Below are positions 2,692-58,595 of a DNA stretch of 64,000 bases, piece by piece. A program made the position numbers and the translations under genes. This DNA is from Candidatus Latescibacterota bacterium. GTDB lineage: Bacteria > Latescibacterota > UBA2968. The stretch is from positions 1,088,001 to 1,152,000 of the forward strand of contig OZ220741.1 in the NCBI GenBank assembly GCA_965116885.1. Direction: 5' to 3'. The notes beneath the pieces were generated by a model. That model was not told the origin of the DNA. It did no database searches and saw nothing but the letters and a program-made list of their open reading frames with translations. Within the stretch, counting starts at the first letter, position 1. Each line of letters opens with the position of its first letter.

Positions 2692-4722
2692 ATGGCATTT
2701 GAAAACGAAACAGATCGGATGCTCGACAATAAGTGGATATTCCCGACTTATATCGTCTTAATGGGCATCCTCGCATGCATCGCCTATGGTCATCTGCTCA
2801 ACCATCCGTTTGGCACCGATGATTTTGAGCATATAGCCGATGTTGAAGCGATCCTGGAAGACCCAACACGCCTATTTTCGCCTGAACATCATTATCACGG
2901 CAGACCTTTGGTCGATATCGTACTTTTGATCGGATATGTTTTATGGGGCAAAAATCCTGGGGCGTATCACGCTCTGACAATCACCCTCCATTTTTTGGTC
3001 AGCCTGCGGCTGGTTCAGACATTCAGGCTCTTTGGCGCGAGCACACCTGTGAGCATGTTGGCAGGTGCATTTTTTTTCTTATATGCAGCGAATTTTGAGA
3101 CCATGCAGTGGATAGCTGCTTCGGCCTATATCCTTGCTCTGATCTTTGCATTGGAAGTTTTGCGCGTATATAAAAACGTACCTTTATCGCGTCCTCAAAT
3201 GTTGCTTGCTGCCCTCTATATACTCCTGGGTATTCTGGCACAACCAGCGTCAGTATTTGTTCTCGGCGTCTGCGTCTATATTGCCTATACACGCACGAAA
3301 TCGCTGTCCGAAACAATTTTCAGCACACTACCTTCTGTGTTGGCGGGGTTTATAGGTGTTGGATGCGTGTATGTGTTTTACGCGAGTTCACCACAGGTTG
3401 AACAATGGTCAATGAATACGGATATAAGTTCCTATTTCCAGCATTTGGGATACCTCATTTTATGGGCTTTTTATTTCCCTATGCACCTGACAATAGGCCA
3501 GGAGGGCGTGTTGACACCTACGACCTATGCTTTAATCGCCGGTATATCCTTCGCTTTAATTTTGTTCTTTCTTATTTTTTTTAGAAAAACACCCGTTTCG
3601 ATCTGGTCCTTATGGACGCTTGCGGCACTCGTGCCCTTTTTTCCTAAATCGGCCCTCTATTCGCGTTACTTCTACTTCGCATCAGCGGGCTCGGCATTTG
3701 TGCTTGCTTATTTTTTTATTTTTTTGTGGACTGCAGCATTTAAAAAAATATCCCGGCCCCTTGCTTATACAATCGGGATAGTGATTCTCGCCATTTTAGT
3801 TTCATCAAGCATTTTTACCCACAAACGAGCAGAAGCCATTGCACTCTACTTTGCGGGCAGAGCACATATCGCCCGTGAGTTTTATAAAGATGGGATTGAG
3901 TTACTCACCCGTGCACTACAAAAAAATGCCCAGGGCATACCCATAGACGCTTATGAACGCCTATCGCTGACTTCATTTAATGAAGGAAAAAACCCAGGCC
4001 ACATTTTGCGCGAAGGGTTAAAACACTACCCCAACCATCCTCAACTTACCCCGGAACTCAATCTCTTGCTTGGGCTGTCTATGTATTTGGACGATACCCA
4101 AATCACAGAAGGCAAAGCACTTGTGCGAAAAATTTATGAATCTACTGAGAACAAATTGAGATTGCACAAAATTGCTGGCACCTGCCTGAACAACTTAGCC
4201 GGGTATTATTCAAACAACAAAAACTACGAAAAAGCTTTGTCCCTGTATCGGGAAGCCCTTGTTTTTCTCCCCAATCATTATAAGGCACATTTGAGACTCA
4301 TCGGAGTACTTTTCGAACTCAATCGCACCAATGAAGCCATTCAAGCTGCACGCCAGGCAATTGACAGGCATCCGAAAAATAAAGATATGGCGTTCCGTTT
4401 GTTCGCTATACTCTTTAACGCAAAACAATACGCTGAAGCCGAGAAGGTGTACCGCCATTATCTCACCCTTGATCCCCGGGCTATCAACCCACACTTCTAT
4501 CTCGGGGCCCTCGCATTGGCACAAGGACGTTATGAGGAAGCCATTGTTAAATTGCAACGCACCATAAAAGATGACCCTGCTGACACTGACGCACATCTAT
4601 ATCTGGCTCAGGCGCTCGAAAAGGTGGGCAAATCACAAGAGGCGGTGCAGGCCTACCGTCGGGTTCTTACTCTGGATCCACACAACAAATTCGCCAACGA
4701 CCGCCTCAAAGCCAACGAGTAG
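2692..4722 (+). CDS. TMTC-like GT-C membrane glycosyltransferase with C-terminal TPRs (paralog 1)
   Basis: Multi-TM N-terminal half with TDDF (DD loop), GRPL, HALTITLH, RYFYFASAG motifs typical of TMTC-type GT-C; TPR repeats in C-terminal half. Confidence 0.7.
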   Translation: MAFENETDRMLDNKWIFPTYIVLMGILACIAYGHLLNHPFGTDDFEHIADVEAILEDPTRLFSPEHHYHGRPLVDIVLLIGYVLWGKNPGAYHALTITLHFLVSLRLVQTFRLFGASTPVSMLAGAFFFLYAANFETMQWIAASAYILALIFALEVLRVYKNVPLSRPQMLLAALYILLGILAQPASVFVLGVCVYIAYTRTKSLSETIFSTLPSVLAGFIGVGCVYVFYASSPQVEQWSMNTDISSYFQHLGYLILWAFYFPMHLTIGQEGVLTPTTYALIAGISFALILFFLIFFRKTPVSIWSLWTLAALVPFFPKSALYSRYFYFASAGSAFVLAYFFIFLWTAAFKKISRPLAYTIGIVILAILVSSSIFTHKRAEAIALYFAGRAHIAREFYKDGIELLTRALQKNAQGIPIDAYERLSLTSFNEGKNPGHILREGLKHYPNHPQLTPELNLLLGLSMYLDDTQITEGKALVRKIYESTENKLRLHKIAGTCLNNLAGYYSNNKNYEKALSLYREALVFLPNHYKAHLRLIGVLFELNRTNEAIQAARQAIDRHPKNKDMAFRLFAILFNAKQYAEAEKVYRHYLTLDPRAINPHFYLGALALAQGRYEEAIVKLQRTIKDDPADTDAHLYLAQALEKVGKSQEAVQAYRRVLTLDPHNKFANDRLKANE

Positions 4723-4731
4723 ATGAACCAC

Positions 4732-6768
4732 ATGGCACTTGAAAACGAAACAAATAGGATACTCAACAATAAGTGGATATTCCCGATCTACATCGTCTTA
4801 ATGGGCATCCTCGCATGCATCGCCTATAGTCATCTGCTTGACCATGCGTTTAGCACCGATGATTTTGAGCATATAGCCGATGTTGAAGCGATCCTGGAAG
4901 ACCCAACACGCCTATTTTCGCCTGAACATCATTATCACGGCAGACCTTTGGTCGATATTGTACTTTTGATCGGATATGTTTTATGGGGCAAAAATCCTGG
5001 GGCGTATCACGCTCTGACAATCACCCTCCATTTTTTGGTCAGCCTGCGGCTGGTTCAGACATTCAGGCTCTTTGGCGCGAGCACACCTGTTAGCCTGTTG
5101 GCAGGTATATTTTTTTTGATATATACAGCCAATTTTGAAACTGTGCAGCGGATAGCTACTTTGGCCTATATCCTTGCTCTGATCTTTGCATTGGAAGTTT
5201 TGCGCGTATATAAAACTGCACCTTTATCGCGTTTTCAAATGTTGCTTGCAGCATTCTACATGCTCTTGGGTATCCTGACACACCCAGCGTCAGTATTTGT
5301 TCTCGGCGTTTGTATCTATATTGCCTATATACGCACAGGGTCGCTTTCTGGGACAATTTTCAGCACAACACCTTCTGTGTTGGTGGGATTAATAGGTGCT
5401 GGATGTATGTATGTGTTTTACTCGAGTGCGCCACAGGTTGGAGAATGGTCAACAATTACGGATGTAAGTCGCTATTTCCAGCATTTGGGACACCTCATTT
5501 TATGGGCATTTTATTTACCCATAAGTGCAACAGACCTGGCGCATCCTGAATTTACGACCCTTGCTTTAATCCTCGGTATATCCTTCGCTTTAATTTTGTT
5601 CTTTCTTGTTGTGTGTAAAAAAACTCCCGTTTCAGTTTGGTCCTTATGGACGCTTACAGCACTCGTGCCTTTTTTTAGTAAATCGACTCTCGCCTGGCGT
5701 TATCTCTACTTCGCATCAGCGGGCTCGGCATTTGTACTTGCCTATTTTTTTATTTTTTTCTTTACCGCAGTTTTCAAAAAAATCTCCCGGCCTCTTGCTT
5801 ACACAACCGGGATAGCGATTCTCGCCATTTTACTTTCATCAAGCATTTTTGCCCACAAACGAGCAGAAGCCATTGCACTCTATTTTGCAGGCAGAGCACA
5901 TCTCGCCCGTGAGTTTTATGAAGATGGGATTGAGTTACTCACTCGTGCATTGAAAAAAAATGCCCAAGGCATTCCCGTAGATGCTTATAAACGCCTATCG
6001 CTGGCTTTATTTGGTGAAGGAAAAAATCCAGGCCACATTTTGCGCGAAGGGTTAAAACACTATCCCGACCATCCTCAACACACCCCGGAACTCAATCTCT
6101 TGCTCGGTCTGTCTATGTATTTGGACGATACTCAAATCACAGAAGGTAAAGCACTTGTGCGAAAGATTTATGAATCTTCCGCAAACAAAACGGAATTGAT
6201 CTCAATTGCGGGCTCCTCTCTGATCAACTTAGCCCTGTATTATTTGGCTAATAAAGACTACGAAAAAGCTTTGTCCATGTGCCGAGAAGCCCTGGCCTTT
6301 CAGCCCAATAATTACAAAGCACATTTTATGCTTGTACCACTACTCTTCAAACTCAATCGCATCAATGAGGCCATTCAAGCCACGCACCAGGCCATTGACT
6401 ATCTAAAAAATAAAGAAATGGCTCTATCTTTCTTCCTTATACTCACTGAAAAAGAACAATATGCTGAAGCCGAAAAAGTGTACCGCCATTATCTCGCCCT
6501 TGATCCCCAAGCTCCGAACGCACACTACAATCTGGGAACCCTCGCATTGGCACAGGGGCGCAATGAGGAAGCCATTGTGAATTTACAACGCGCAGTAAAA
6601 GATGATCCTGCTGACACTGATGCACATCTATATCTGGCTCAGGCGTTCGAAAAGGTGGGACAAACACAGGAGGCGATACGCGCCTATCGCCGGGTACTTG
6701 TTTTAGATCCGCACAACAAATTCGCCAACGACCGCGTCAAAGCCAACGAGACCAGGCCTACCCCGTAA
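4732..6768 (+). CDS. TMTC-like GT-C membrane glycosyltransferase with C-terminal TPRs (paralog 2)
   Basis: Tandem duplicate of 2692-4722 at 2040-bp offset; start set by alignment (MALENET vs MAFENET). Confidence 0.7.
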   Translation: MALENETNRILNNKWIFPIYIVLMGILACIAYSHLLDHAFSTDDFEHIADVEAILEDPTRLFSPEHHYHGRPLVDIVLLIGYVLWGKNPGAYHALTITLHFLVSLRLVQTFRLFGASTPVSLLAGIFFLIYTANFETVQRIATLAYILALIFALEVLRVYKTAPLSRFQMLLAAFYMLLGILTHPASVFVLGVCIYIAYIRTGSLSGTIFSTTPSVLVGLIGAGCMYVFYSSAPQVGEWSTITDVSRYFQHLGHLILWAFYLPISATDLAHPEFTTLALILGISFALILFFLVVCKKTPVSVWSLWTLTALVPFFSKSTLAWRYLYFASAGSAFVLAYFFIFFFTAVFKKISRPLAYTTGIAILAILLSSSIFAHKRAEAIALYFAGRAHLAREFYEDGIELLTRALKKNAQGIPVDAYKRLSLALFGEGKNPGHILREGLKHYPDHPQHTPELNLLLGLSMYLDDTQITEGKALVRKIYESSANKTELISIAGSSLINLALYYLANKDYEKALSMCREALAFQPNNYKAHFMLVPLLFKLNRINEAIQATHQAIDYLKNKEMALSFFLILTEKEQYAEAEKVYRHYLALDPQAPNAHYNLGTLALAQGRNEEAIVNLQRAVKDDPADTDAHLYLAQAFEKVGQTQEAIRAYRRVLVLDPHNKFANDRVKANETRPTP

Positions 6769-17192: not shown

Positions 17193-17289
17193 ACATGATA
17201 TCAGGACGGGAAAAATACAGGAAAATCCTCAGAGTGTCAAGCGTTGGAAACAAGCTATCGGCGGTCAGCCCCGTCCTGCCACCACCCAA

Positions 17290-19900: not shown

Positions 19901-20473
19901 ATGGAACTGGAAGTACTCTTACCGCTAATCGTGTTTCTCTTCTTCAGCCTTATCGCGCCGCTCATAAAAAGGCTGCGAGGCACCAGAGAACCCGACGAAT
20001 CCAAACTCCAGCGCAGGCAAACGTCCCGCGACGCAGGTGCCGACGACCCCTTTGAAGAGGAGTTTGACCTTTCCGAATGGGAAGTCATCTTCGGACCTAC
20101 TGAACCCGAACCTGAACCCGAACCAAAACCACCTTCAGAGTTCCAGGAGGTACAGGGCAAACGCCCCGTCTCTGAAGCAGACACCGGACCAGAGTTTCGG
20201 GAAGTTGAAGGCAAGCGTCCCGTTTCCGAAGCAGACACCGGACCGGAATTTCAAGAGGTTGAAGGCAAGCGCCCCGTCTCCGACGAATCATCTTACATCG
20301 AAGGCCAGACCTCATTTATACGCGCATCAGAAACCGAAATGCTCCTGCGCCCCAAACGCAAAAAACGCCGTATAAAACTCGATTTTGAACCCGACACCAT
20401 CCGCAAAGCCATCATCTACAACGAAATCATCGGACCGCCACGCGCTGAAACAGATCACTTCAAAAACCCTTGA
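19901..20473 (+). CDS. Hypothetical membrane-anchored protein, third gene of the nfeD-floA operon, with 18-aa repeats
   Basis: N-terminal TM; three EF(Q/R)EVxGKRPVS units; C-terminal RKAIIYNEIIGPPRA motif. Confidence 0.75.
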   Translation: MELEVLLPLIVFLFFSLIAPLIKRLRGTREPDESKLQRRQTSRDAGADDPFEEEFDLSEWEVIFGPTEPEPEPEPKPPSEFQEVQGKRPVSEADTGPEFREVEGKRPVSEADTGPEFQEVEGKRPVSDESSYIEGQTSFIRASETEMLLRPKRKKRRIKLDFEPDTIRKAIIYNEIIGPPRAETDHFKNP

Positions 20474-20519
20474 CACACAATCCCGCGTTTGGGATATTGT
20501 TCACCATGGAACATCAGGT

Positions 20520-49719: not shown

Positions 49720-50934
49720 CTAAAATTGAAACGGCACCAACCAATCCTCTTCAATCCCCAGATCAAAACCCGGACCCGTCGGCGCAAACTCCAGATAGCT
49801 ATTGCGCGGTACGCACGCGCCGGGTTGCGCCACTTCTTCAAGCGGCACCCCTGGATCAGAACCGATAAAATACTCACACCAGGGCGTATTGGGCATTGCC
49901 CAGCTCAAATGCTGACCGTACGCATCGCGTCCCCCGCCGTGCAGACAAACCTCCAGACCTGCAGCGGCAGCCATATTACAAATTTTGACACAAGCAGTCA
50001 AACCGCCCACCCACTGAATATCGGGTTGCAAAATATCGAGACACCGATTTTCGATCATCAACTGGTAGGGATACGGCGTGTAAAAATGCTCGCCACTGGC
50101 AAGGGTCAACCACGGCAGGCGTTTCTTGAGTTCAATATGCCCCCCAACATCTTCCGGAATCAGACACTCTTCCATCCAGCGCAGATTATAAGGACGCAGG
50201 CGATTGGCCAGACGCGCGGTATATTCCACATCAAAAGCCATATAACAATCCAGCATGAGATCGCAATCATCGCCGATCAACTCGCGGACCTCGGCTATTC
50301 GCCTCTCGTTCTCCCCCAATCCCCACAAGCCATCAACCGGACCGTATTGACAGGGCAACTTAAACGCCCGAAACCCCAACTCCTTGTACCAATCCACATC
50401 ATCCCCCGTCGCGTACACAAACAAACGGTCGCGCGCCGGACCGCCCAGAAGCTCATAAACGGGCTTGCCTTGCAATTTCCCCGCCAGATCCCACAGTGCC
50501 AGATCCACAGCACTCATCGCCAACGAGGCGATCCCCACAGTTCCAAAAGATTTGGACACGCGAAACATCATATCCCACAGCTTTTCAATTGCCAGACAAC
50601 TTTCCCCTTCTAAGATATGCGCGAAAGCATCTTCCACCACCATAGCAACCGGGCGTCCCGCCGACGTGCCGAGGCCCCAGGTCCCATCTTCAGCGGTCAC
50701 CTTAACCGAAAACCTGGGCCACTGTCTGGCACCGTAAAGCTGCCGCCGCGCCTTAAACCGCGGGAACTTAGACATCGGATTTGCCACCTCTATCTGCGAG
50801 GGCCACGCCTTTCGATACCCCTTTGTCCTCGGTGCTGCACCTGTTGAAGCGGCGAGTGTCGTACCAGATCCCGTTGAGACCTGGCTCGCATCTGGCCGTT
50901 TAACGCGAACGACTTCGACGGATTTGATTTTCAT
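49720..50934 (-). CDS. Enolase-superfamily acid-sugar dehydratase (L-rhamnonate dehydratase-like)
   Basis: [37 protein letters not shown]. Confidence 0.85.
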
Positions 50935-51112
50935 GTATTGTCCTTTTTCTCGTATTGGAATGATCCTCAGGAACAAACAATGTATCAACAACGCGAGATT
51001 GTCAACCGCAATTCGGTTGTTGAGGATATTTATTTCAGGGATGTGCAAGTCAAAAAAAAGCGTACGTGTCAATATTTAACACGCACGCTTTTGTCAACCG
51101 CATTTCAAAACA

Positions 51113-51703
51113 TCAAGGTAGATCAAGATTCACCGCCTTGTCCCAGGTGATATGAACCAGATCCTCGGGATCGCCTTTAATCACATGCTTCCTATTTCGC
51201 AAGTTCCGAAGTTTGAACATTTCTCTCATATCGATGCTGCACTTTTTTAAGAGTGCAATAAGATCTTTGGATGATTTGAGCTTATAACAAGATTTATCGG
51301 GCGAAAAATAGACCAGAATATTTTTCTGCAACTGCAATAAGTTGAGAACATTGTTCAGGGTTCCCTTACTCTTTCCATCCCAGATCATGAAGCCATAGGA
51401 CGCTACTCGAGCCATCTTTGCATCCTTCGTTGTGTAGTATGCAAAGTCCTTTATATCATTATCTGCATATATCTGTTCTACTGGCCAACTTCCCACGTTG
51501 TTCCGACAGTGATCATCCATGCAATAAACGATAACATTCCGATATGCTTTTTCTGCTAAATAGCTCTGTACCGCCTTGTCAGCACCATTTGCATCGCCGA
51601 TGACAATAGCAAAACGCTGACGCATGATGTTATCCGCTGTGTACCTGATGGTATCGTTCAAACGTGTGATACTACGAGAACCGCCAATGAAAACCGTCTT
51701 CAT
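51113..51703 (-). CDS. SLOG-like (DprA/YspA-related) protein with an antitoxin-like C-terminal tail
   Basis: VFIGGSR, IGDANGADKAVQ, MIWDGKSKGT; tail IKGDPEDLVHITWDKAVNLDLP. Confidence 0.6.
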   Translation of the reverse strand: MKTVFIGGSRSITRLNDTIRYTADNIMRQRFAIVIGDANGADKAVQSYLAEKAYRNVIVYCMDDHCRNNVGSWPVEQIYADNDIKDFAYYTTKDAKMARVASYGFMIWDGKSKGTLNNVLNLLQLQKNILVYFSPDKSCYKLKSSKDLIALLKKCSIDMREMFKLRNLRNRKHVIKGDPEDLVHITWDKAVNLDLP

Positions 51704-51850
51704 GATATTGCCTTTGTACGGGTGGGAGCCAGCACGTACACATCAGAGCATTGTGCCTGATCATAACGTTGCGAACCCTTGTGAAAAGATTGGGAATCTT
51801 GTCGAAAGCGTTGGTGATAATTCCACCTCTTTTATCTTTGTTCTGCCTTC

Positions 51851-51900
51851 GGCGACCTACTTTTTGTCAGCAGCCACAAAAAGTAGGCAAAAAAGGCCGC
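51851..51900. repeat. Palindromic MITE-like element
   Basis: CCTACTTTTTGT..ACAAAAAGTAGG-CAAAAAAGG inverted repeat in non-coding DNA. Confidence 0.5.
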
Positions 51901-52177
51901 TCTCAAACGCCGAGGGGCTGGCACAGCACAAATCGTTTCTGTGGCAATACGCTATACAATGGCCTACACAGTTGGGATACCACAAGAACATCCGCTGCGA
52001 GACGGACTCACGCGCTGTGCGTAATGGCTTTAATTGATGGCGCTTTATGAGAGTACGTTTTGTAATGCCTTATCTGAAGTACTGCGTAACATCTATTACA
52101 CTAAAAAACAAAAAGTGTCGCAACGAGGCGAGATTATCAACCGCATTTCAAATTATTCGCCCAATCTGCGCTTAAAA

Positions 52178-52897
52178 TTACACTGCTATACCAACTTGTA
52201 GCGCGGCATCATAGCCTCCCGTCGCGACATTGGCAATCACATTTGTCAGTTGGTATTGGAATGCATTGGCTGGGGAACGAAAAAGGCCATCGTCGGTATT
52301 TTTCGTGGGATTCTGTCCCCGAGGAGAATATTCCGTTGTATTGAACACAGCCGTATTGATTTCTTCGGGAAAAGCCAATTGCGAGGTTGCCACCAATCCA
52401 TTATTTAAAAAAATTTGAAAATGAATATGCGTTGCTCTACCCGGATACCATCCCGGATAAACTGTTGTAAATGTGGCATCTCCATTCTCGTCACTCAACT
52501 GAATACCCCGGCAAAAAGTCTGTCCACTCGCATTGACACCACCAGGTTGATTGGAAAATCCGGAATAAACCCCACGCGTATCGCAATGCCATACATCGAC
52601 GCGGGCATTGACAATTGGCGTACACCCAGCATTTGCATTCACCACCTTCAAAGTCAAATTAAGCGGCACGCCCGATATGTCTTCCGCAATATCCCGTCGA
52701 AAATATTCGGGATTATTGCTCAAATTTAATGGAAAAGGCCCTTCTGTTTCTTGCGGTATTAAAATGCAACTTCCCTCACTCAGGAGAGGATCGTCACCCT
52801 GGGTGACCAGATCCTTGTTGCAAGCCTTCATAATCAGGCCTCCAACGCCCATCAGACCAACACCCCCCACGCGCTTCAAAACATCCCGTCGATTCAT
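52178..52897 (-). CDS. Intradiol ring-cleavage dioxygenase-like protein, Tat-exported lipoprotein
   Basis: NRRDVLK twin-Arg, KAC lipobox-like, TEGPF, VDVWHCD..G.YS, YPGWYPGRATHIH. Confidence 0.85.
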   Translation of the reverse strand: MNRRDVLKRVGGVGLMGVGGLIMKACNKDLVTQGDDPLLSEGSCILIPQETEGPFPLNLSNNPEYFRRDIAEDISGVPLNLTLKVVNANAGCTPIVNARVDVWHCDTRGVYSGFSNQPGGVNASGQTFCRGIQLSDENGDATFTTVYPGWYPGRATHIHFQIFLNNGLVATSQLAFPEEINTAVFNTTEYSPRGQNPTKNTDDGLFRSPANAFQYQLTNVIANVATGGYDAALQVGIAV

Positions 52898-53228
52898 TCT
52901 TCTTCTCCAAAACAAACGCGATTACACAGCTCTAAAATTCGATGCTCAAATCAAGAGACACATTGTCGCCTGTCGCAGTGATACAATTCATCATTTGAGA
53001 CACGCGACAAGCCCACTTCGTTCCCCTGAAAATTGTAATAAATTGTTACAGTGCCACTTCCTCCTCTTTCATTTAGCGAGCGAATGGGTTTTCTGTAGAG
53101 GGATCAACCTGCAAAAAAATACCGCCCCCCGATATTGGGAGAGCGGTATAGAATGGATCGGTACGATGAACCGACGCTTGTGTTCTTCGCATTTCAAAAC
53201 ATCTCTTCTACGACCAAAGACATCACGC

Positions 53229-53471
53229 CTAATCCTTTGGATCAAATTTATGCCACATCTCTTTTCGGACTTCGGCTATATCTCGAGCGGTTATTGGCTC
53301 CATCTGATCCCACAAGCCTTCGGGATTAAAGAGCTTGCCTTGATCAAATTCTGACGAATCTGGTACTTTTGACATAGAGGCCGAACCATCTTTCTGCATG
53401 ATAATCACTTTCTCCCCATTGGCCTCTTCTTTGACCAATGCTGCAAGACAGTTTTCCGCTTCTGTCTCGAT
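53229..53471 (-). pseudogene. Degenerate/chimeric Phd-YefM-like antitoxin
   Basis: Open frame IETEAENCLAALVKEEANGEKVIIMQKDGSA (Phd-like) lacks a proper start; ends GLW..IT..DIAEVRKEMW. Confidence 0.45.
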
Positions 53472-53479
53472 ATACCTCT

Positions 53480-53668
53480 CTACTGGTCTGAAGTTGTGAC
53501 AGTTGTTGCAACAGCCGCACGGGATGGATACTGCACGTATTTACGACCAGATGATTTTTGTTTTTTCTTAATATCGCGGAATATCTCTTTGAGATCGTAG
53601 CCAAACTGAGCAGCGTGTTTGTCGCGTACTGCCCGGACTTCCGAAACAACAGGATCATTCATCGTCAT
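53480..53668 (-). CDS. Small protein of the DPIVEEVR type usually found next to PIN toxins
   Basis: NDPVVSEVRAVRDKHAAQFGYDLKEIFRDIK. Confidence 0.6.
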   Translation of the reverse strand: MTMNDPVVSEVRAVRDKHAAQFGYDLKEIFRDIKKKQKSSGRKYVQYPSRAAVATTVTTSDQ

Positions 53669-53727
53669 GATCGCGCCCTATGAGGTTGATCAATTTGGTA
53701 GAATAGAACAGTGGGAATGCATCGACA

Positions 53728-53988
53728 CTACAGATTCCTGGCACTGGAAATATCCTTTGCCAATTCTTCTGAGGTCAGATTGATAGGAGATACCTGGTAG
53801 GATTTTAAGGCATCTAAAAACACAACACGCTCCATGCCCGCAAACCGAGCCGCCTGCCCCGATGACAAACGTCCGAGTTCAAACAGTTTGACAGCGATAA
53901 GCATACGGCCTTGTTCAGCGAATTGTTCAGGCGTTTCACTAAGGGTCTGCAGAATATCATCTGGACATTCAAATGTAATTTTTAACAT
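53728..53988 (-). CDS. UPF0175 family protein (putative antitoxin)
   Basis: AVKLFELGRLSSGQAARFAGMERVVFL..L. Confidence 0.85.
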   Translation of the reverse strand: MLKITFECPDDILQTLSETPEQFAEQGRMLIAVKLFELGRLSSGQAARFAGMERVVFLDALKSYQVSPINLTSEELAKDISSARNL

Positions 53989-54121
53989 GTGCGCCCCGTT
54001 TCATCCATATTTGAATTATACCCAAAAACAAAAAGTGTAGTAACGACACGATTTTGTCAACCGCATTGGACTTGACCCGTTTTGGTGGGTACCTTATCAG
54101 TAGTCAGAAAGGAGACCCACT

Positions 54122-54433
54122 ATGCCACCAACACGTCCACCTTATCCAGCCGAGTTGAAACGCCAGATCATCGAGCTTGTGCGTGCTGGCCGCAGTCCTA
54201 CAGAATTGGCCAGAGAGTTTGAGCCGACCGCTCAGACCATCCAAAATTGGATACGCCAAGCTGATCGAGATGAGGGACTTCGAGAAGACGGTCTGACCAG
54301 TTCTGAGCGAGAAGAGTTGCGTGTTCTTCGACGTGAGAACAAGCAGTTGCGCATTGAGCGTGAGATATTGTCAAAAGCAGCGGCCTGGTTCGCAAGGGAG
54401 ACCGACGCGATCCCAAGAAAATCTTCGCGTTAA
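54122..54433 (+). CDS. IS3 transposase OrfA
   Basis: YPAELK HTH, LRRENKQLRIEREILSKAAAWFA. Confidence 0.92.
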   Translation: MPPTRPPYPAELKRQIIELVRAGRSPTELAREFEPTAQTIQNWIRQADRDEGLREDGLTSSEREELRVLRRENKQLRIEREILSKAAAWFARETDAIPRKSSR

Positions 54434-55281
54434 TAAAAGCGCATCAGGCACTTTGGCCAATCGCCACGCAATGCCGAGTCCTGGGTGTCTCCCTCAGCGG
54501 GTATTATGCCTGGCGAACACGTCCACCCTCTAAACGAGCAAAAGTTGATGCAGACCTCAAGAAGAAGATTAAAGCCTTTCACACCCGATCAGATGGCACC
54601 TATGGTGCGCCCCGTATCTGGAAAGACCTGATGGATGTGGACATCCTTGTAAGTAAGAAGCGCGTGGCACGTCTGATGCGTGAGATGACCATTTGTGGCA
54701 TTAGCCGCCGAAAGAGCACGCAAACGACTGTTAAGGCGCGTCAGGATAGAAAGGCTCCCGATCTGGTAAAACGCGACTTCACGGTTGCAACGGTCAATAA
54801 ACTCTGGGTGGCTGACATCACCTATGTACCCACCTATTCTGGATTTTTGTATCTATCTGTTGTCTTGGATGCCTTCTCTCGCCGCGTCGTGGGTTGGGCA
54901 ATGGCAACACACCTGCAAAGCGAGTTAGTCTTGTCAGCTTTAAATATGGCCCTTTACCAGCGCCGTCCCGAAGACGTGATTCATCACTCTGACCAGGGAG
55001 CACAATATACCTCCATAGCATTTGGAAAGCGTTGTCGTGAGGCTGGCGTACGTCCCTCAATGGGGGCTGCTGGCGACTGCTATGACAACGCGCTGTGCGA
55101 GAGCTTCTTCGCCACCCTGGAGTGTGAGTTGGTCAATCGCCGATCCTTCCGTACGCATAAAGAGGCTCGGTTAGCTATCTTCTCCTACATTGAAGGGTGG
55201 TATAACCCGCATCGCAGGCATTCTTCCATCGCCTACCATGCACCGATAGCTTATGAAAAACTGCATCAATCACAGGCTTGA
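54421..55281 (+). CDS. IS3 transposase OrfB (DDE), probably expressed by -1 frameshift
   Basis: Frame open from about 54421 (CRVLGVS.SGYYAW, YGAPRI); WVADITY, HHSDQG, DNALCESFF. Confidence 0.9.
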   Translation: MFALIKAHQALWPIATQCRVLGVSLSGYYAWRTRPPSKRAKVDADLKKKIKAFHTRSDGTYGAPRIWKDLMDVDILVSKKRVARLMREMTICGISRRKSTQTTVKARQDRKAPDLVKRDFTVATVNKLWVADITYVPTYSGFLYLSVVLDAFSRRVVGWAMATHLQSELVLSALNMALYQRRPEDVIHHSDQGAQYTSIAFGKRCREAGVRPSMGAAGDCYDNALCESFFATLECELVNRRSFRTHKEARLAIFSYIEGWYNPHRRHSSIAYHAPIAYEKLHQSQA

Positions 55282-55322
55282 AACCCAAGCCCTAAACTCT
55301 CCACCAAAACGGGGTAACTCCA

Positions 55323-55424
55323 GCCAGACAACTCGGCGAGCCAGAAAGTTTTTGGGTTCAGCTTGCACTACAGGACATGCTTCGAAAAGAAAATTTGAAC
55401 CTCGTTGTTTCCGTCGAAAAATAA
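55323..55424 (+). pseudogene. C-terminal remnant of a HigA/XRE-like protein truncated by IS3
   Basis: ARQLGEPESFWVQLALQDMLRKENLNLVVSVEK* begins exactly at the IS right end. Confidence 0.5.
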
Positions 55425-55443
55425 AAGGGGCAATCTCAAAATA

Positions 55444-55620
55444 TTCAGTATTGCCGAGAACAAGTGACTACTCCCAACGATAGAGCAGTTGGGCTTCTTG
55501 GTGGTCAAGCCACCTGACGTTGTAGCCCCAACGTCAATATGTTTATCGCAGCATTGTGGTCTCTGTCCGTCTTATAGCCACACGCCTTGCAATGATGCAC
55601 ACGATCTGAGAGTGTCTTTT
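55444..55620 (-). ncRNA. Predicted TnpB omega/reRNA: scaffold over the tnpB 3' end and RE, guide from flanking DNA (5' boundary uncertain)
   Basis: Established TnpB biology; RE ends in TCAC at 55464; next 20 nt are TTGTTCTCGGCAATACTGAA. Confidence 0.5.
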
Positions 55621-56840
55621 TCTCTCTATGTCCGCATGCAGAGCAATCTTGTGACGTATAGTCAGGATCAACGGCCTTGAATCCAATACCAGCTTCTTCC
55701 GCTTTGTATTCGAGACAGTGCCGAAACAGGGACCACGCTACGTCTGCTATTGATTTAGCCAACCGTCTGTTTTTTTGCATCTCTTTCACGTCCAATTTCT
55801 CTACGGCTATGAAACCGTGACGATTGACCATTTTTCTTGATTCTTGATGAGCAAAGTTATGTCGTTTATTACGGATACGCTCATGCACTTTGGCAATGAC
55901 CTTACGACGCTTTTCTCTTACAGCGTCCGTCTTAGGTCTTTTTTTCACTGCGTCCCATTTGCGCTGTGCTCTGGCAAGTGATTTTTCCTCTTTGCGAAAG
56001 AATCGCTGATTCTCTATTTTTTCGCCGTCACTGGTCACAGCAAAGGAATTGAGACCCACGTCAATGCCAATAGCAGAGCCAGCGTCTTTTTTTTCAGGTG
56101 TATCGCCAATATCGCAAGAGATAGACACAAACCATTTGCCTGTTGCTGTGCGTGTGATTGTGCAAGATTTAGGGATACCCTCAAGTGGCCTGTGCTGGAC
56201 AATGCGAATGCAACCAATACTGCCCAATCGCAAGCCCTTGTCGTCTAATCGACATCCATTGGCAAACTGAGGATAGGTGATAGAATCATAGCGATTCTCA
56301 TTCTTGTATCTGGGAAATCCTGCTTTCTCGCCTGTCTTTGACTTCCCTTTGAGACGGCGAAAGAATCCTTTGAATGCAAGATCAACCCGTACCGCGACCT
56401 GTTGCAACACCTGACTATACACTGGCTTGAAAGCAACGTGCTGCTGTTTCAGCATTGGCAATGTCGCCTGTTGCTCATAGCACGACAGACTTTCTTTATT
56501 CTTTTTCCATGCTTGTATTCTCGCACAGAGTAGTTGATTATAGAGAATACGACATTCGTCAATATGCGTCAGCAAGATTTGTTCTTGCTTTTTGGTTGGA
56601 CGCAATCTATATTTGAACGACTTAAACATAATAAAAATATATATTTATGTGCCGTTTATGTCAAGTGGAATATGGAATAAATCTTGTTGATGAAGTGCTC
56701 GCGCACTTGTACGCCCACATTGCCTTGTGCAATGTGCCACCGTGCTAAAGCACCACACCATAAGCATGTCCCTGCGAAAGCAGGGATTCGTAAGCCCTTA
56801 TATCTCAACGCTAACGCTGTTGGGCCTTACGGGCTATTAG
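55464..56840 (-). mobile_element. IS200/IS605-family TnpB-only (IS1341-type) element
   Basis: LE follows TTAC (56844-56841) with hairpin GCCCGTAAGGCCC..GATATAAGGGC; RE GAAGCCCAAC..GTTGGGAGTAGTCAC; no tnpA. Confidence 0.8.
55505..56629 (-). CDS. tnpB: RNA-guided endonuclease TnpB
   Basis: FKYRLRPT HTH, GFPRYK, GIDVG (D), AVEKL (E), CSACG..CKACG, DRDHNAAINI (D). Confidence 0.95.
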   Translation of the reverse strand: MFKSFKYRLRPTKKQEQILLTHIDECRILYNQLLCARIQAWKKNKESLSCYEQQATLPMLKQQHVAFKPVYSQVLQQVAVRVDLAFKGFFRRLKGKSKTGEKAGFPRYKNENRYDSITYPQFANGCRLDDKGLRLGSIGCIRIVQHRPLEGIPKSCTITRTATGKWFVSISCDIGDTPEKKDAGSAIGIDVGLNSFAVTSDGEKIENQRFFRKEEKSLARAQRKWDAVKKRPKTDAVREKRRKVIAKVHERIRNKRHNFAHQESRKMVNRHGFIAVEKLDVKEMQKNRRLAKSIADVAWSLFRHCLEYKAEEAGIGFKAVDPDYTSQDCSACGHREKKTLSDRVHHCKACGYKTDRDHNAAINILTLGLQRQVA

Positions 56841-56881
56841 GTAAGAAAAATTAAACGCCAAACCTGAGAAAGGAGCCTCAA

Positions 56882-57238
56882 ATGGCCGAGCATGTTTCGG
56901 TTGAGGAAATGGTCAAAGCATTATCCAGTGAATCTTTTGCAGCAGAGTTTGCTGAGCAGAATGCAAAAACTCAGCTATCTCAATCTTTGTCCGCTGCAAG
57001 AGTTGCATCCGGAATGACTGAGCGCGAGATTGCCGACCGTCTCGGATGGACCGAAGATGATGTGGTGAGATTTGAGTACCAGGAAACAGATAAAATCAGT
57101 CTTGGAGATTTGGCTTGTTATTTAGGTGCTCTTGGGATTAAAGTGCATTTGTCCTTCCTCCCCTCTGAGCAAAAGGCTCCTGTTTTGCCCCCCGTAAAAG
57201 CCTTTCCCGAGCACGATATCGCAGTCCAAACATCCTGA
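56882..57238 (+). CDS. XRE-family HTH protein (antitoxin/regulator-like)
   Basis: LSAARVASGMTEREIADRLG..VVRFE; AAGGAG RBS. Confidence 0.8.
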   Translation: MAEHVSVEEMVKALSSESFAAEFAEQNAKTQLSQSLSAARVASGMTEREIADRLGWTEDDVVRFEYQETDKISLGDLACYLGALGIKVHLSFLPSEQKAPVLPPVKAFPEHDIAVQTS

Positions 57239-57278
57239 ACAACCCATTGAACCTCGTCGTCTCCATCGCTTAACACCC

Positions 57279-58595
57279 CTACCACCCTGGTCCCACATCT
57301 GCCGCAGTTAAGGGACCGCCATCCTCCGTTTCCGTCGGGAACTCAACGCAACCAATCGTCTTTTGCTCGCCCCGGGAATGCCCCAGAACATCCGTCGTAA
57401 TCTCTGGATAATGCCCCTCGGCATTACCAATCAGACCACTGGACTCTCCCGGTGCAACAACCCCATTGGGCAGATACGCCACATCGACCCGCCCAGTTTT
57501 TATCCCATTTCGAGCGGGCATACCCAAATCCCCATCCGTCACATTCCCCTCCCATGTCCAATCCACTGGCTCATCGTCCTGCACCAGCCGCACAGTCCTA
57601 TCGGATCTCACAAAAGCATTATTCGCAATTACACAATCTTTAGGCGCCGTACCATTGGGATACCTGCTGTGATTTAGCCCCACAACCATCGCCGGACTAC
57701 ATCCCACAAACGTATTAAACGCAACCAGCGCGCGCTCCACCCGCACATAGAGATCATCCGTTGTCCCATCCATCATCCCCACGCCAAACGCATTGAGCGA
57801 ATGGAACAAATTATTCACCACAACCTGATCCGTCCCCTGCAAACGCACACCGCCAGCCCGGCGTTCACCCTCGCCAAAAAAGAAATTCTCAGACACCACA
57901 TTGCCATCCCCGTGCCGAAGCACCAGCGCGCCGCGGCAATCGCGAAACGTATTCCTGCGCAGCATATTGCCATTGGACTTCACAGAAATAATCTCCGCTT
58001 CCCCATTACAACGCTCAAAAAGATTGTACTCAATCACCGTCTCACAATCGCCCGGCTCCGGATCGTACGGATTCCCCTCTGTAATAAGCTGAAGCGTCTC
58101 GTACCCATTGCTCTCCTTACCATCCGGAACATCCACAAAATAATTGTGATGGACATGGTGCCTCTCGCCCTGATTCCGCACATAAATCTGCATCAACTGG
58201 CAGCCGCGCGTCTCCTCGAGATTATTGGTCTTATTCTCAAACCGGCAGCGATCAATCTCAACCTCCCGGCTCTCTGCCCTCACCCGTATCCACTTGCCAA
58301 CCTGCACATCCGTCATCACACAGCGACTTATGCGACAACCCCGCCCTCGAATCTCCACACTCCCCTTCGCCACAAAATGCAACCCCACAAAACTGATATA
58401 ATCTCCCACCAACAACAACGGCGCCTTTATAACCGCCTTTCCCATACCCTCCGCCCGAATAACAATCGGCTGATCCGCAGTCCCCCTCGCCGCGAGCCTG
58501 CACCTCTCGCCATCATACACGCCATCGGCCAGCGCAATCACATCGCCCGGCTGTGCCTCAGCCACCCGCGCTTCAAGTTCGGAAAGAGACTTCAT
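57279..58595 (-). CDS. Polysaccharide lyase family 6 (chondroitinase B/alginate lyase-like beta-helix)
   Basis: AQPGDVIALADGVY, NGYETLQ, NLFERCNGEAEIISVKS, LVLRHG. Confidence 0.85.
   Translation of the reverse strand: MKSLSELEARVAEAQPGDVIALADGVYDGERCRLAARGTADQPIVIRAEGMGKAVIKAPLLLVGDYISFVGLHFVAKGSVEIRGRGCRISRCVMTDVQVGKWIRVRAESREVEIDRCRFENKTNNLEETRGCQLMQIYVRNQGERHHVHHNYFVDVPDGKESNGYETLQLITEGNPYDPEPGDCETVIEYNLFERCNGEAEIISVKSNGNMLRRNTFRDCRGALVLRHGDGNVVSENFFFGEGERRAGGVRLQGTDQVVVNNLFHSLNAFGVGMMDGTTDDLYVRVERALVAFNTFVGCSPAMVVGLNHSRYPNGTAPKDCVIANNAFVRSDRTVRLVQDDEPVDWTWEGNVTDGDLGMPARNGIKTGRVDVAYLPNGVVAPGESSGLIGNAEGHYPEITTDVLGHSRGEQKTIGCVEFPTETEDGGPLTAADVGPGW

Follow-up and report, generated by a model that had tools for sequence, protein, structure and literature searches.

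How can unrelated genes come to stand, one after another, behind copies of the same short sequence? This question is raised by a locus in Candidatus Latescibacterota bacterium (OZ220741.1), of which a stretch of 64 kb (the window) was analyzed and in which positions 50972 to 54066 carry direct copies of a repeat unit of ~50 nt. An earlier reading of the letters alone (the original prediction) had taken the locus for an integron-like array of gene cassettes lacking attC sites, in which five copies of a promoter-bearing motif delimit the cassettes. Here, we propose that the unit is a portable promoter that also offers a short stretch of homology through which modules are exchanged at a recombination hot spot, an explanation to which we assign a probability of roughly 0.55. 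Protein families were assigned with Pfam for 47 open reading frames (ORFs) of the window, 70 ORFs of the arrays at seven related loci and 98 ORFs at five further loci.

Sequence and Copies of the Repeat Unit

Read on the minus strand, the unit comprises a left part, L (GAGATRTTTTGA, with TTTGA at its end), a core (AATGCGGTTGACAA) followed by TATCGCGTTGTTGCTACAYTTTTTG, and a right part, R, in which TCGC and GTTGCTACAYTTTTTG precede a -10-like hexamer. A repeat search of the window detected three copies of 58 nt (50953-51010, 52088-52145 and 54008-54065; 67-76% identity to the reference copy) and four of 30 nt (51085-51114, 52128-52157, 53174-53203 and 54048-54077; 73-83% identity), all in a single orientation. 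The 14-nt core, allowing one mismatch, matched four times in the 64 kb, always within 50999-54067, as compared to 0.017 matches expected from a base composition model of the window. The five direct repeats are real and far above chance, which confirms the observation from which the original prediction started. They are not simply five copies of one motif, however: copy 2 consists of L and core fused to a terminator, and copy 4 heads a separate block of ~95 nt described below. Recomputing the alignment of copies 3 and 5 gave exactly the ungapped 52 nt with 10 mismatches reported before, and the AATGCGG-TTGACA motif was likewise found on the minus strand, with the long copies ending in TATAAT (copy 5) and TGTAAT (copy 3), as had been noticed, and in GATCAT (copy 1).

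The genes of the 51-54 kb region all lie on the minus strand, and the G+C content of this region is 44-46% as compared to 52-55% in its flanks. Copy 1 is located 65 nt upstream of the start (50934) of the enolase-superfamily gene that heads an enolase-superfamily/BKACE operon, and copy 2 sets in at the stop codon of a SLOG-like gene; the coordinates bear out both placements as originally described. Copy 3 follows a dioxygenase gene and precedes non-coding DNA and then the SLOG-like gene, while copy 5 is found 65 nt upstream of a UPF0175 gene, its L part having been replaced by the end of an IS3 element. Copy 1 additionally sits within a perfect 8-bp inverted repeat (TCAACAAC ... GTTGTTGA) spanning its core (50960-51030, minus strand), which may be an operator of the resident enolase operon.

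Occurrence of the Unit

A scan of 185,579 species-representative genomes with the 21-mer pattern GAAWTGCGGTTGAYAAWNNCG, which fits copies 1-3, returned 72 loci. Nineteen of these (20 distinct matches) belong to 10 Candidatus Latescibacterota assemblies, with 1-5 strict matches per assembly in chromosomes of 4.7-6.3 Mb; the source genome itself is not among the scan matches, the best flank identity being 95.5%, to L013/L037 (loci labelled L0xx are the 20-kb surroundings of scan matches). The remaining 53 loci have one match each in unrelated taxa, where ~35 would be expected for a random 35-bit pattern in 596 Gb on both strands. A 54-nt profile of the unit was then run with nhmmer on 341,475 nt (the window and 14 non-redundant loci) and recognized 31 true units scoring 35-63 bits, every one of them at modules of the kind described here. 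By contrast, the 53 outside loci match the 21-mer only, and the 19 of them with any nhmmer match reach at most 25.1 bits (profile positions 7-37), which leaves no true unit among them; L030, within the phylum, was rejected as a chance match. True units are thus confined to Candidatus Latescibacterota among the scanned public genomes. The low copy number and this confinement rule out a genome-wide box, an uptake sequence or a repetitive extragenic palindromic (REP) element, in line with the original prediction, for which a motif common throughout the genome would have been fatal. No description of this repeat, or of promoter-sharing toxin-antitoxin arrays in Latescibacterota, was found in the literature searched, mostly at the level of abstracts.

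At the window locus and elsewhere, the unit heads at least seven unrelated gene sets: DUF433 with an MqsA-like zinc ribbon, UPF0175 with DUF3368, an antitoxin-position gene with a PIN gene, a 119-aa gene with a PIN gene, DUF2442, the SLOG-like gene and the enolase operon. At other loci of the same genomes, a lone unit precedes antitoxin-position and PIN genes in L024, L038, L063 and L072, one unit stands ahead of the 119-aa and PIN genes in L060, and in L009 a unit is found ahead of a SLOG-like and a DUF2442 gene. Of 324 unit pairs with different cargo, 196 share 80% identity or more over 50 nt. On average, two units were 82% identical when they headed the same cargo in different genomes, and 78% identical both for unlike cargo within one genome and for all remaining pairs. 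In some units, an extra short repeat (ATCCTGATTCTGACAAGG, at times followed by TTGGTTGGCTTGCGATTRGCA) lies directly upstream of L, as seen in L017 (5620-5690), L051 (10705-10775), L063 (10030-10100) and L015 (8382-8450).

Putative Promoter Function

Each of the 31 units has the same orientation as the gene that follows it, and for 24 of them a co-oriented ORF starts within 130 nt of the core, although start sites were picked automatically and are noisy. In 17 of the 31 units, a TTGCTA-like hexamer is followed after exactly 17 nt by xAxxxT (GATAAT, TGTAAT, TATAAT, GATCAT, GATTAT or GATATT); five more show a spacer of 16 or 18 nt or a register shift of 1 nt, so that a -35/-10-like pair is present in 22 of the 31. 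The two tRNA genes of the window carry TTGACA-17-GATATT and TTGACA-17-TATTTT (20471-20519, plus strand, and 17193-17245, minus strand), which indicates that the host, a member of the Fibrobacterota-Chlorobiota-Bacteroidota (FCB) group, uses canonical -35/-10 promoters. Based on position and sequence, we infer that the unit is a promoter, as originally predicted; it would be of sigma-70 type and extend over ~50 nt, with an A/T-rich L, the invariant TTGACAA, a second -35-like TTGCTA and, in most cases, a -10 hexamer 17 nt downstream. The TTGACA of the invariant core lies 24 nt upstream of TTGCTA and could serve as a second -35 hexamer (with TACAYT 15 nt or CAYTTT 17 nt downstream) or be part of an upstream or activator site. 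When compared by eye with consensus sequences, neither a Bacteroidetes-type -33/-7 promoter, a sigma-54 site, an integration host factor (IHF) site nor an extracytoplasmic function (ECF)-type promoter fits all copies.

The same data might be explained by a regulon signature alone, i.e., by the promoter and operator of a shared regulator or alternative sigma factor for toxin-antitoxin and stress genes, with rearrangements arising from ordinary hot-spot turnover via conserved flanks and insertion sequences in which the unit takes no part. This appears rather improbable. Relative to the start inferred from TTGCTA/GATAAT, the core occupies about -59 to -46, which is a usual position of an activator site or UP-element, and many copies contain GAAAT-16-CGTT, loosely resembling the ECF-type consensus, from which several copies deviate; in addition, the locus has visibly been reshaped by IS3 and TnpB elements and, as seen below, the majority of joints fall outside the units. 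Members of a regulon normally share a box of 14-20 nt. The units, in contrast, share ~50 nt at ~80% identity including the spacers, which argues for common descent rather than convergence. Moreover, joints are enriched at units, and L-core is also found fused to terminators, where a promoter role is impossible.

A Hypervariable Locus in Related Genomes

The flanks of the window locus, i.e., the enolase operon and a chondroitinase-B-like gene, were found at 86-95% nucleotide identity in seven related genomes (L008, L013/L037, L014/L015, L017, L036, L051 and L053), with 1.9-10 kb of intervening DNA. All eight versions of the locus differ, as the original prediction, to which identical cargo and order in relatives would have been contrary, led one to expect. 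The arrays hold 2-5 units each, spaced 0.09-7.4 kb apart. Since the modules between units measure 0.09-7.4 kb and contain up to a dozen ORFs, not every gene is delimited by repeats, contrary to the cassette structure envisaged initially. At the related loci, adjacent antitoxin and toxin genes of known families form type II toxin-antitoxin modules: DUF433 with a YgiT/MqsA-type zinc ribbon, UPF0175 with DUF3368, PIN pairs, a Phd/YefM-type protein with PIN, and a RelE-like with a HigA-like gene, the last of these being found on the opposite strand at the distal end. Further cargo includes a helix-turn-helix (HTH) protein with DUF4258, a DEAD/MZB helicase similar to helicases of defence systems, a WD40 protein, the dioxygenase and the SLOG-like gene, and TnpB, IS3 and DDE insertion sequences are also present in the arrays.

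A second portable block, the T-block, was recognized in addition to the unit. It measures ~95 nt, is conserved and begins with L and AATGYG as in the unit, continues with GAAGAAYACARGCGTCGG and ends in a G+C-rich terminator. Nine copies were counted in the window and the loci: copy 4 of the window, L008 (10599), L013 (17745), L015 (5502), L017 (7045), L038 (8938), L051 (18913) and, twice, L063 (10185 and 11879). They follow differing genes, the upstream context being variable right up to the left edge of L. Copy 4 is the head of a T-block and not a decayed unit.

A second hot spot lies between a BatD-type operon and a PALP-enzyme gene and holds differing modules in L060 (9300-11300) and L063 (8900-11700). 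A single unit with the 119-aa and PIN genes is present in L060, while L063 contains two units together with another PIN pair, a T-block and a remnant that is 82.5% identical over 555 nt to the L060 module.

Module Joints and Reassortment

Joints between modules were located as the ends of blastn blocks of at least 150 nt among 14 regions, and a unit window was defined as -10 to +64. Of the 290 distinct block ends, 34 fell in unit windows as compared to 6.5 expected. Within the interiors of the eight arrays, 27 of 177 ends were in unit windows, which make up 3.8% of all interior positions (p 1e-9); when only intergenic positions served as background, 27 of 80 ends were in unit windows as compared to 18.2 expected (p 0.016). 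In the set of 290, the ends are concentrated at profile positions 2-14, a span reaching from the left border of L to that of the core. Joints are thus enriched at the repeat, where the original prediction would have breakpoints lie, but 150 of the 177 interior joints are found outside units, and 97 lie inside ORFs of at least 60 aa. The unit is not the end of an IS3 or TnpB element, the ends of these insertion sequences being unrelated in sequence.

Individual recombinants point to where exchange takes place. The L variant of copy 3 (CGAATAATTTGA) stays with the 3' end of the dioxygenase gene; on its other side follows the SLOG leader in the window and the leader of UPF0175 in L013. The SLOG leader is itself joined to three different left contexts (window, L008 and L009). 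Because the dioxygenase-linked L and the SLOG and UPF0175 leaders occur recombined in this way, the crossovers would lie inside the identical core of ~19 nt. Furthermore, the 19 nt past the core reassort: 3 of 11 classes of this middle part occur with at least two cargo types and 5 of 6 multi-copy cargo types with at least two classes, the clustering thresholds being arbitrary and drift a confounder. This would place exchange also further to the right, near ACAYTTTTT. Since there are two crossover zones at the two longest identity tracts, and segments of the unit reassort on both sides of the middle part, general recombination fits better than a single fixed site of crossing over; for a duplication of the site at each insertion of cargo, as suggested in the original prediction, no evidence was obtained.

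We propose that modules are gained, lost and reordered at the window locus, which would act as a recombination hot spot bounded by two conserved genes. The unit heads unrelated toxin-antitoxin or defence-type modules as well as the resident enolase operon, and the T-block, with its L and terminator, closes several modules. Because every module brings the same unit, units and T-blocks may act as short identity tracts for joining, swapping and deleting modules. General (homologous or microhomology) recombination probably drives this exchange, alongside IS3 and TnpB activity.

Several observations weigh against this proposal. A properly spaced -10 hexamer is lacking in nine of the 31 units, of which three are fused to terminators and six stand ahead of DUF433 or F17 modules, and the conservation of AATGCGG, which forms the left half of the core, and of the subsequent TCGC exceeds the needs of a -35 hexamer, although this invariance is partly due to ascertainment, since the scan pattern demanded those letters. 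Against the intergenic background, joints are modestly enriched (p 0.016), and part of this is built in, because BLAST blocks extend across a shared unit and break off once the adjoining sequences diverge. The shared tracts, 19-26 nt when exact and ~50 nt at ~80% identity, are short and make a poor substrate for RecA. Neither homogenisation nor concerted evolution of units within a genome was seen (78% vs 78%), and, with a unit identity of 82% within as compared to 78% between module types, the data do not show frequent gene conversion. Finally, modules flanked by direct L-core repeats (copy 3 to copy 2, or unit to T-block) are equally expected from a site-specific system.

Such a dedicated system, with L-core as its crossover site and the recombinase encoded elsewhere in the genome, is in our view unlikely. 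Circular L-core-R modules would enter L-core-terminator or W-core-R sites (W being the AACCGA-bearing left part of copy 1), which would result in self-expressing arrays with the logic of an integron and a different site. Consistent with this, direct L-core repeats flank the SLOG module (copies 3 and 2) and a PIN pair (unit and T-block), in the dioxygenase/SLOG/UPF0175 recombinants L stays linked to the gene upstream and R to the module downstream, with the crossover within the ~19-nt core, the left edge of L is a recurrent boundary of both units and T-blocks, AATGCGG and TCGC are conserved above promoter needs, and the same modules occur at several unrelated chromosomal sites. However, neither a tyrosine or serine recombinase, an HUH protein nor another candidate is encoded in the 64-kb window or any of the 20-kb loci, the unit has neither dyad symmetry nor a hairpin, most interior joints (150/177) are off-unit, the middle of the unit reassorts against both sides and implies more than one crossover zone, and the single-unit loci L024, L038, L060 and L072 lack a second complete unit within 20 kb. 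None of the observations calls for a system of this kind. More specifically, L-core (GAGATRTTTTGA-AATGCGGTTGACAA) might be the attachment site of an undescribed Latescibacterota cassette system, in which circular modules carrying promoter and site are inserted by a recombinase encoded elsewhere; this version seems doubtful. If it were true, inserts would be placed between a gene and its terminator or ahead of a resident operon, and toxin-antitoxin and defence arrays would form without intI or attC. Involvement of any trans-acting recombinase would make this a new cassette system.

Genes and Mobile Elements of the Window Locus

The coordinates of the features are given in Table 1. The SLOG-like protein had no match in Pfam, NCBIfam or PADLOC. 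Its AlphaFold model (predicted local distance difference test, pLDDT, 84.3) matched ShosA, DprA, LOG and the SLOG domain of ThsA in Foldseek (E 3.9e-5 to 7e-3, template modelling (TM) score ~0.5), so that the SLOG assignment made originally is supported at the level of the fold. Since the top structural match is ShosA of the Shosta anti-phage system, the protein may be an anti-phage defence component. It belongs to a large, unnamed protein family (4826 matches at E up to 0.001) without a Pfam domain. Of the non-coding stretch preceding its gene, ~300 nt are missing from the L009 version of the module. A block of ~190 nt therein, without a match in Rfam, has an 87% identical counterpart at L051 10100-10286. 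In the window, the block separates a unit from the SLOG-like gene; in L051, it lies between UPF0175 and the enolase-proximal unit.

Pfam agrees with the previous naming of the dioxygenase, UPF0175, enolase-superfamily and BKACE genes, and the translation of the dioxygenase contains the twin-arginine motif RRDVLK at its N-terminus. Of the two small genes described as antitoxin-like, one (53229-53438) is a truncated antitoxin-position homologue, whose full-length relatives of 96-115 aa stand ahead of a PIN toxin in L024, L038, L063 and L072, whereas the other (53480-53668) belongs to no family. The PIN toxin is missing from the window, and so is the partner of UPF0175 (DUF3368 or another gene), which is present in L013 and L017; the window island keeps antitoxin-side genes only.

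Table 1. Features of the repeat-bearing locus in the window.
Feature	Positions	Strand	Description
Unit copy 1 (W-core-R, AACCGA-core-R)	50953..51023	-	Core 50999-51012 (ATTGCGGTTGACAA), TTGATA-17-GATCAT; nhmmer 47.7 bits
Intrinsic-terminator-like hairpin	51056..51092	-	17 pairs, then T run; onset inside copy 2 directly past core
Unit copy 2 (L-core only, fused to terminator)	51071..51117	-	Core 51091-51104; nhmmer 36.8 bits
SLOG/DprA-like gene, 196 aa	51113..51703	-	Fold match; no sequence family
Non-coding stretch, 384 nt	51704..52087	-	Between copy 3 and SLOG-like gene; block 51832-52020 recurs in L051
Unit copy 3 (full L-core-R)	52088..52159	-	Core 52134-52147 (AATGCGGTTGATAA), TTGCGA-17-TGTAAT; nhmmer 51.6 bits
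Intradiol-dioxygenase-like gene	52178..52915	-	Pfam; twin-arginine-type N-terminus; no unit upstream
T-block	53113..53206	-	L + AATGCG + AAGAACACAA...; terminator 53119-53149 (12 pairs); includes copy 4 (53174-53203)
Antitoxin-position gene, 5'-truncated, 69 aa	53229..53438	-	77% identity to gene preceding PIN toxin elsewhere
ORF, 62 aa	53480..53668	-	No family; DNA homologues in L014/L015, L036, L053
UPF0175 antitoxin-type gene, 86 aa	53728..53988	-	Pfam
Unit copy 5 (core-R)	54008..54067	-	Core 54054-54067, TTACTA-17-TATAAT; nhmmer 44.5 bits
IS3-family element	54068..55322	+	orfA 54122-54433, orfB 54631-55281; inverted ends TGGACTTGACCCGTTTTGGTGG / CCACCAAAACGGGGTAACTCCA
HigA-like HTH gene remnant (last ~30 codons)	55323..55411	+	Gene at distal end of island in L008, L013, L017, L051
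IS605-type TnpB element	55427..56865	-	tnpB 55505-56629; between HigA-like remnant and HTH gene; limits from L051, which lacks the element

The IS3 element lies between the HigA-like remnant and copy 5. No target duplication was found at its ends (CAT vs GCC), and a copy with 89% identity is located in L008 (10777-12022) in the opposite orientation, inserted into a T-block; the missing duplication together with the inverted copy suggests a deletion or inversion mediated by the insertion sequence in the window lineage. In L008, L013, L017 and L051, the HigA-like gene forms the distal end of the island, on the strand opposite to the cargo. IS605-type TnpB elements without tnpA were observed at differing sites in four versions of the island (window 55427-56865, L013 11113-12314, L015 3510-4661 and L017 5090-5495), and that of L013 breaks the dioxygenase gene at a position equal to window 52404. 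Its guide RNA might be encoded in the 78 nt that follow tnpB of the window (55427-55504). A blastn search for links to plasmids and phages with 50950-54070 gave chance-level matches of 60-74 nt only. At the gathering score, Rfam detected two tRNAs only in the whole window, and within 50900-57300 nothing more than two sub-threshold chance matches. Elsewhere in the window, two adjacent TPR proteins of 676 and 681 aa (2692-4722 and 4723-6768, plus strand) have an equal domain layout and lie in a stretch of lower G+C content (44-47%); their genes are probably tandem paralogues.

Comparison with Known Systems

If the unit indeed combines promoter and homology anchor, it would represent a common 'plug' for toxin-antitoxin and defence modules in a poorly known uncultured phylum: a module bearing it would be expressed wherever it landed and would share an identity tract with all other modules. 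Modular arrays resembling those of integrons could then arise by simple means, with no integrase dedicated to the task, and two subjects usually treated apart would be joined, namely propagated promoters and hypervariable defence or toxin-antitoxin hot spots. The unit also provides a concrete, testable sequence for the study of island assembly.

Integron cassettes are mostly promoterless and are expressed from a common promoter, Pc, beside attI. The integrase gene of an integron, intI, lies adjacent and encodes a tyrosine recombinase, and attC sites are imperfect inverted repeats (R''-L''...L'-R') forming hairpins as single strands. A true integron cassette array, or an attC cluster without integrase but with unusual attC sites, is very improbable here. 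The locus resembles such arrays in its co-oriented modules, its repeated site, which stands at the 3' ends of genes in copies 2, 3 and 4, its richness in toxin-antitoxin genes and its variability among relatives. However, none of the ORFs submitted to Pfam belongs to the integrase or resolvase families (Phage_integrase, resolvase), the only recombination-type proteins being rve (IS3), OrfB_IS605 (TnpB) and DDE transposases. Single-strand folding of the five units on both strands, as expected of attC, was no better than that of shuffled sequences for 8 of 10 strands (z +1.16 to -0.91); the sole exception is the W-type copy 1 (z -2.3 and -2.7), in which the AACCGA-side flank pairs TCAACAAC with GTTGTTGA. 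No conserved stems between L and R were found, the best having 1-8 pairs. A hairpin pairing L with the 7 nt past the core was considered and dropped, as it reaches 6-8 pairs in few copies (GGGCGA/TCGCCT; GTGAGAGA/TCTCTCAT), 1-5 in most and none in the W-type. Pairs of R'' and R' boxes (RYYYAAC...GTTRRRY) numbered 0 in 50900-54100 as compared to 0.34 in shuffles. With no intI among the ORFs analyzed, no folded site and no boxes, an integron or attC identity was rejected, and the absence of attC stated at the outset is borne out by folding, stems and box search alike. Furthermore, the cargo is not promoterless: 22 of the 31 units have a -35/-10-like pair of their own, and the array contains terminators. 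Many modules comprise several genes, and most joints are off-repeat. Taken together, the integron-like mechanism of the original prediction is partly supported, by varying cargo and joints enriched at the repeat, and partly not, given the location of most joints elsewhere and the lack of an integrase in the window and the 20-kb loci.

Modules of pdif type on Acinetobacter plasmids are small, often encode toxin-antitoxin pairs and are reshuffled between replicons by a recombinase encoded elsewhere; their 28-bp XerC/XerD sites (11-6-11) show dyad symmetry and alternate in orientation. The frequent toxin-antitoxin pairs and the short conserved sites are shared features, whereas the Latescibacterota units are direct repeats without dyad symmetry, the only symmetry around the 7-nt stretch past the core being ACAA...TTGT (4 nt).

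Correia, ERIC and REPIN elements are short dispersed repeats that give neighbouring genes promoters or terminators. The unit is likewise a short dispersed repeat with promoter-like parts, and the T-block carries a terminator; unlike Correia, ERIC and REPIN elements and miniature inverted-repeat transposable elements (MITEs), the unit has no terminal inverted repeats, hairpin or target duplication and occurs with 1-5 strict matches per genome. Small repeats such as these are also named in the work on putative mobile promoters, which are defined as highly similar non-coding DNA (80% or more over a minimum of 50 nt) that precedes non-paralogous genes within and between genomes, with an unknown mode of movement (PMC3575422; Nijveen, Matus-Garcia and van Passel, 2012). 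The Latescibacterota unit agrees with this definition, given that 196 of 324 cross-cargo pairs reach the threshold and the cargo families are unrelated by Pfam. It differs in being tied to one cargo class (toxin-antitoxin or defence-type), in being clustered in hypervariable hot spots, and in that it marks module joints and has a partner, the T-block, that shares its first ~18 nt. Minimal mobile elements are variable contents between specific conserved flanks in close relatives, exchangeable by homologous recombination (PMC3787668). The Latescibacterota locus, being variable between conserved flanks, conforms to them; it differs in its internal linkers, the units and T-blocks, which would permit the exchange of sub-modules and not of the whole region only.

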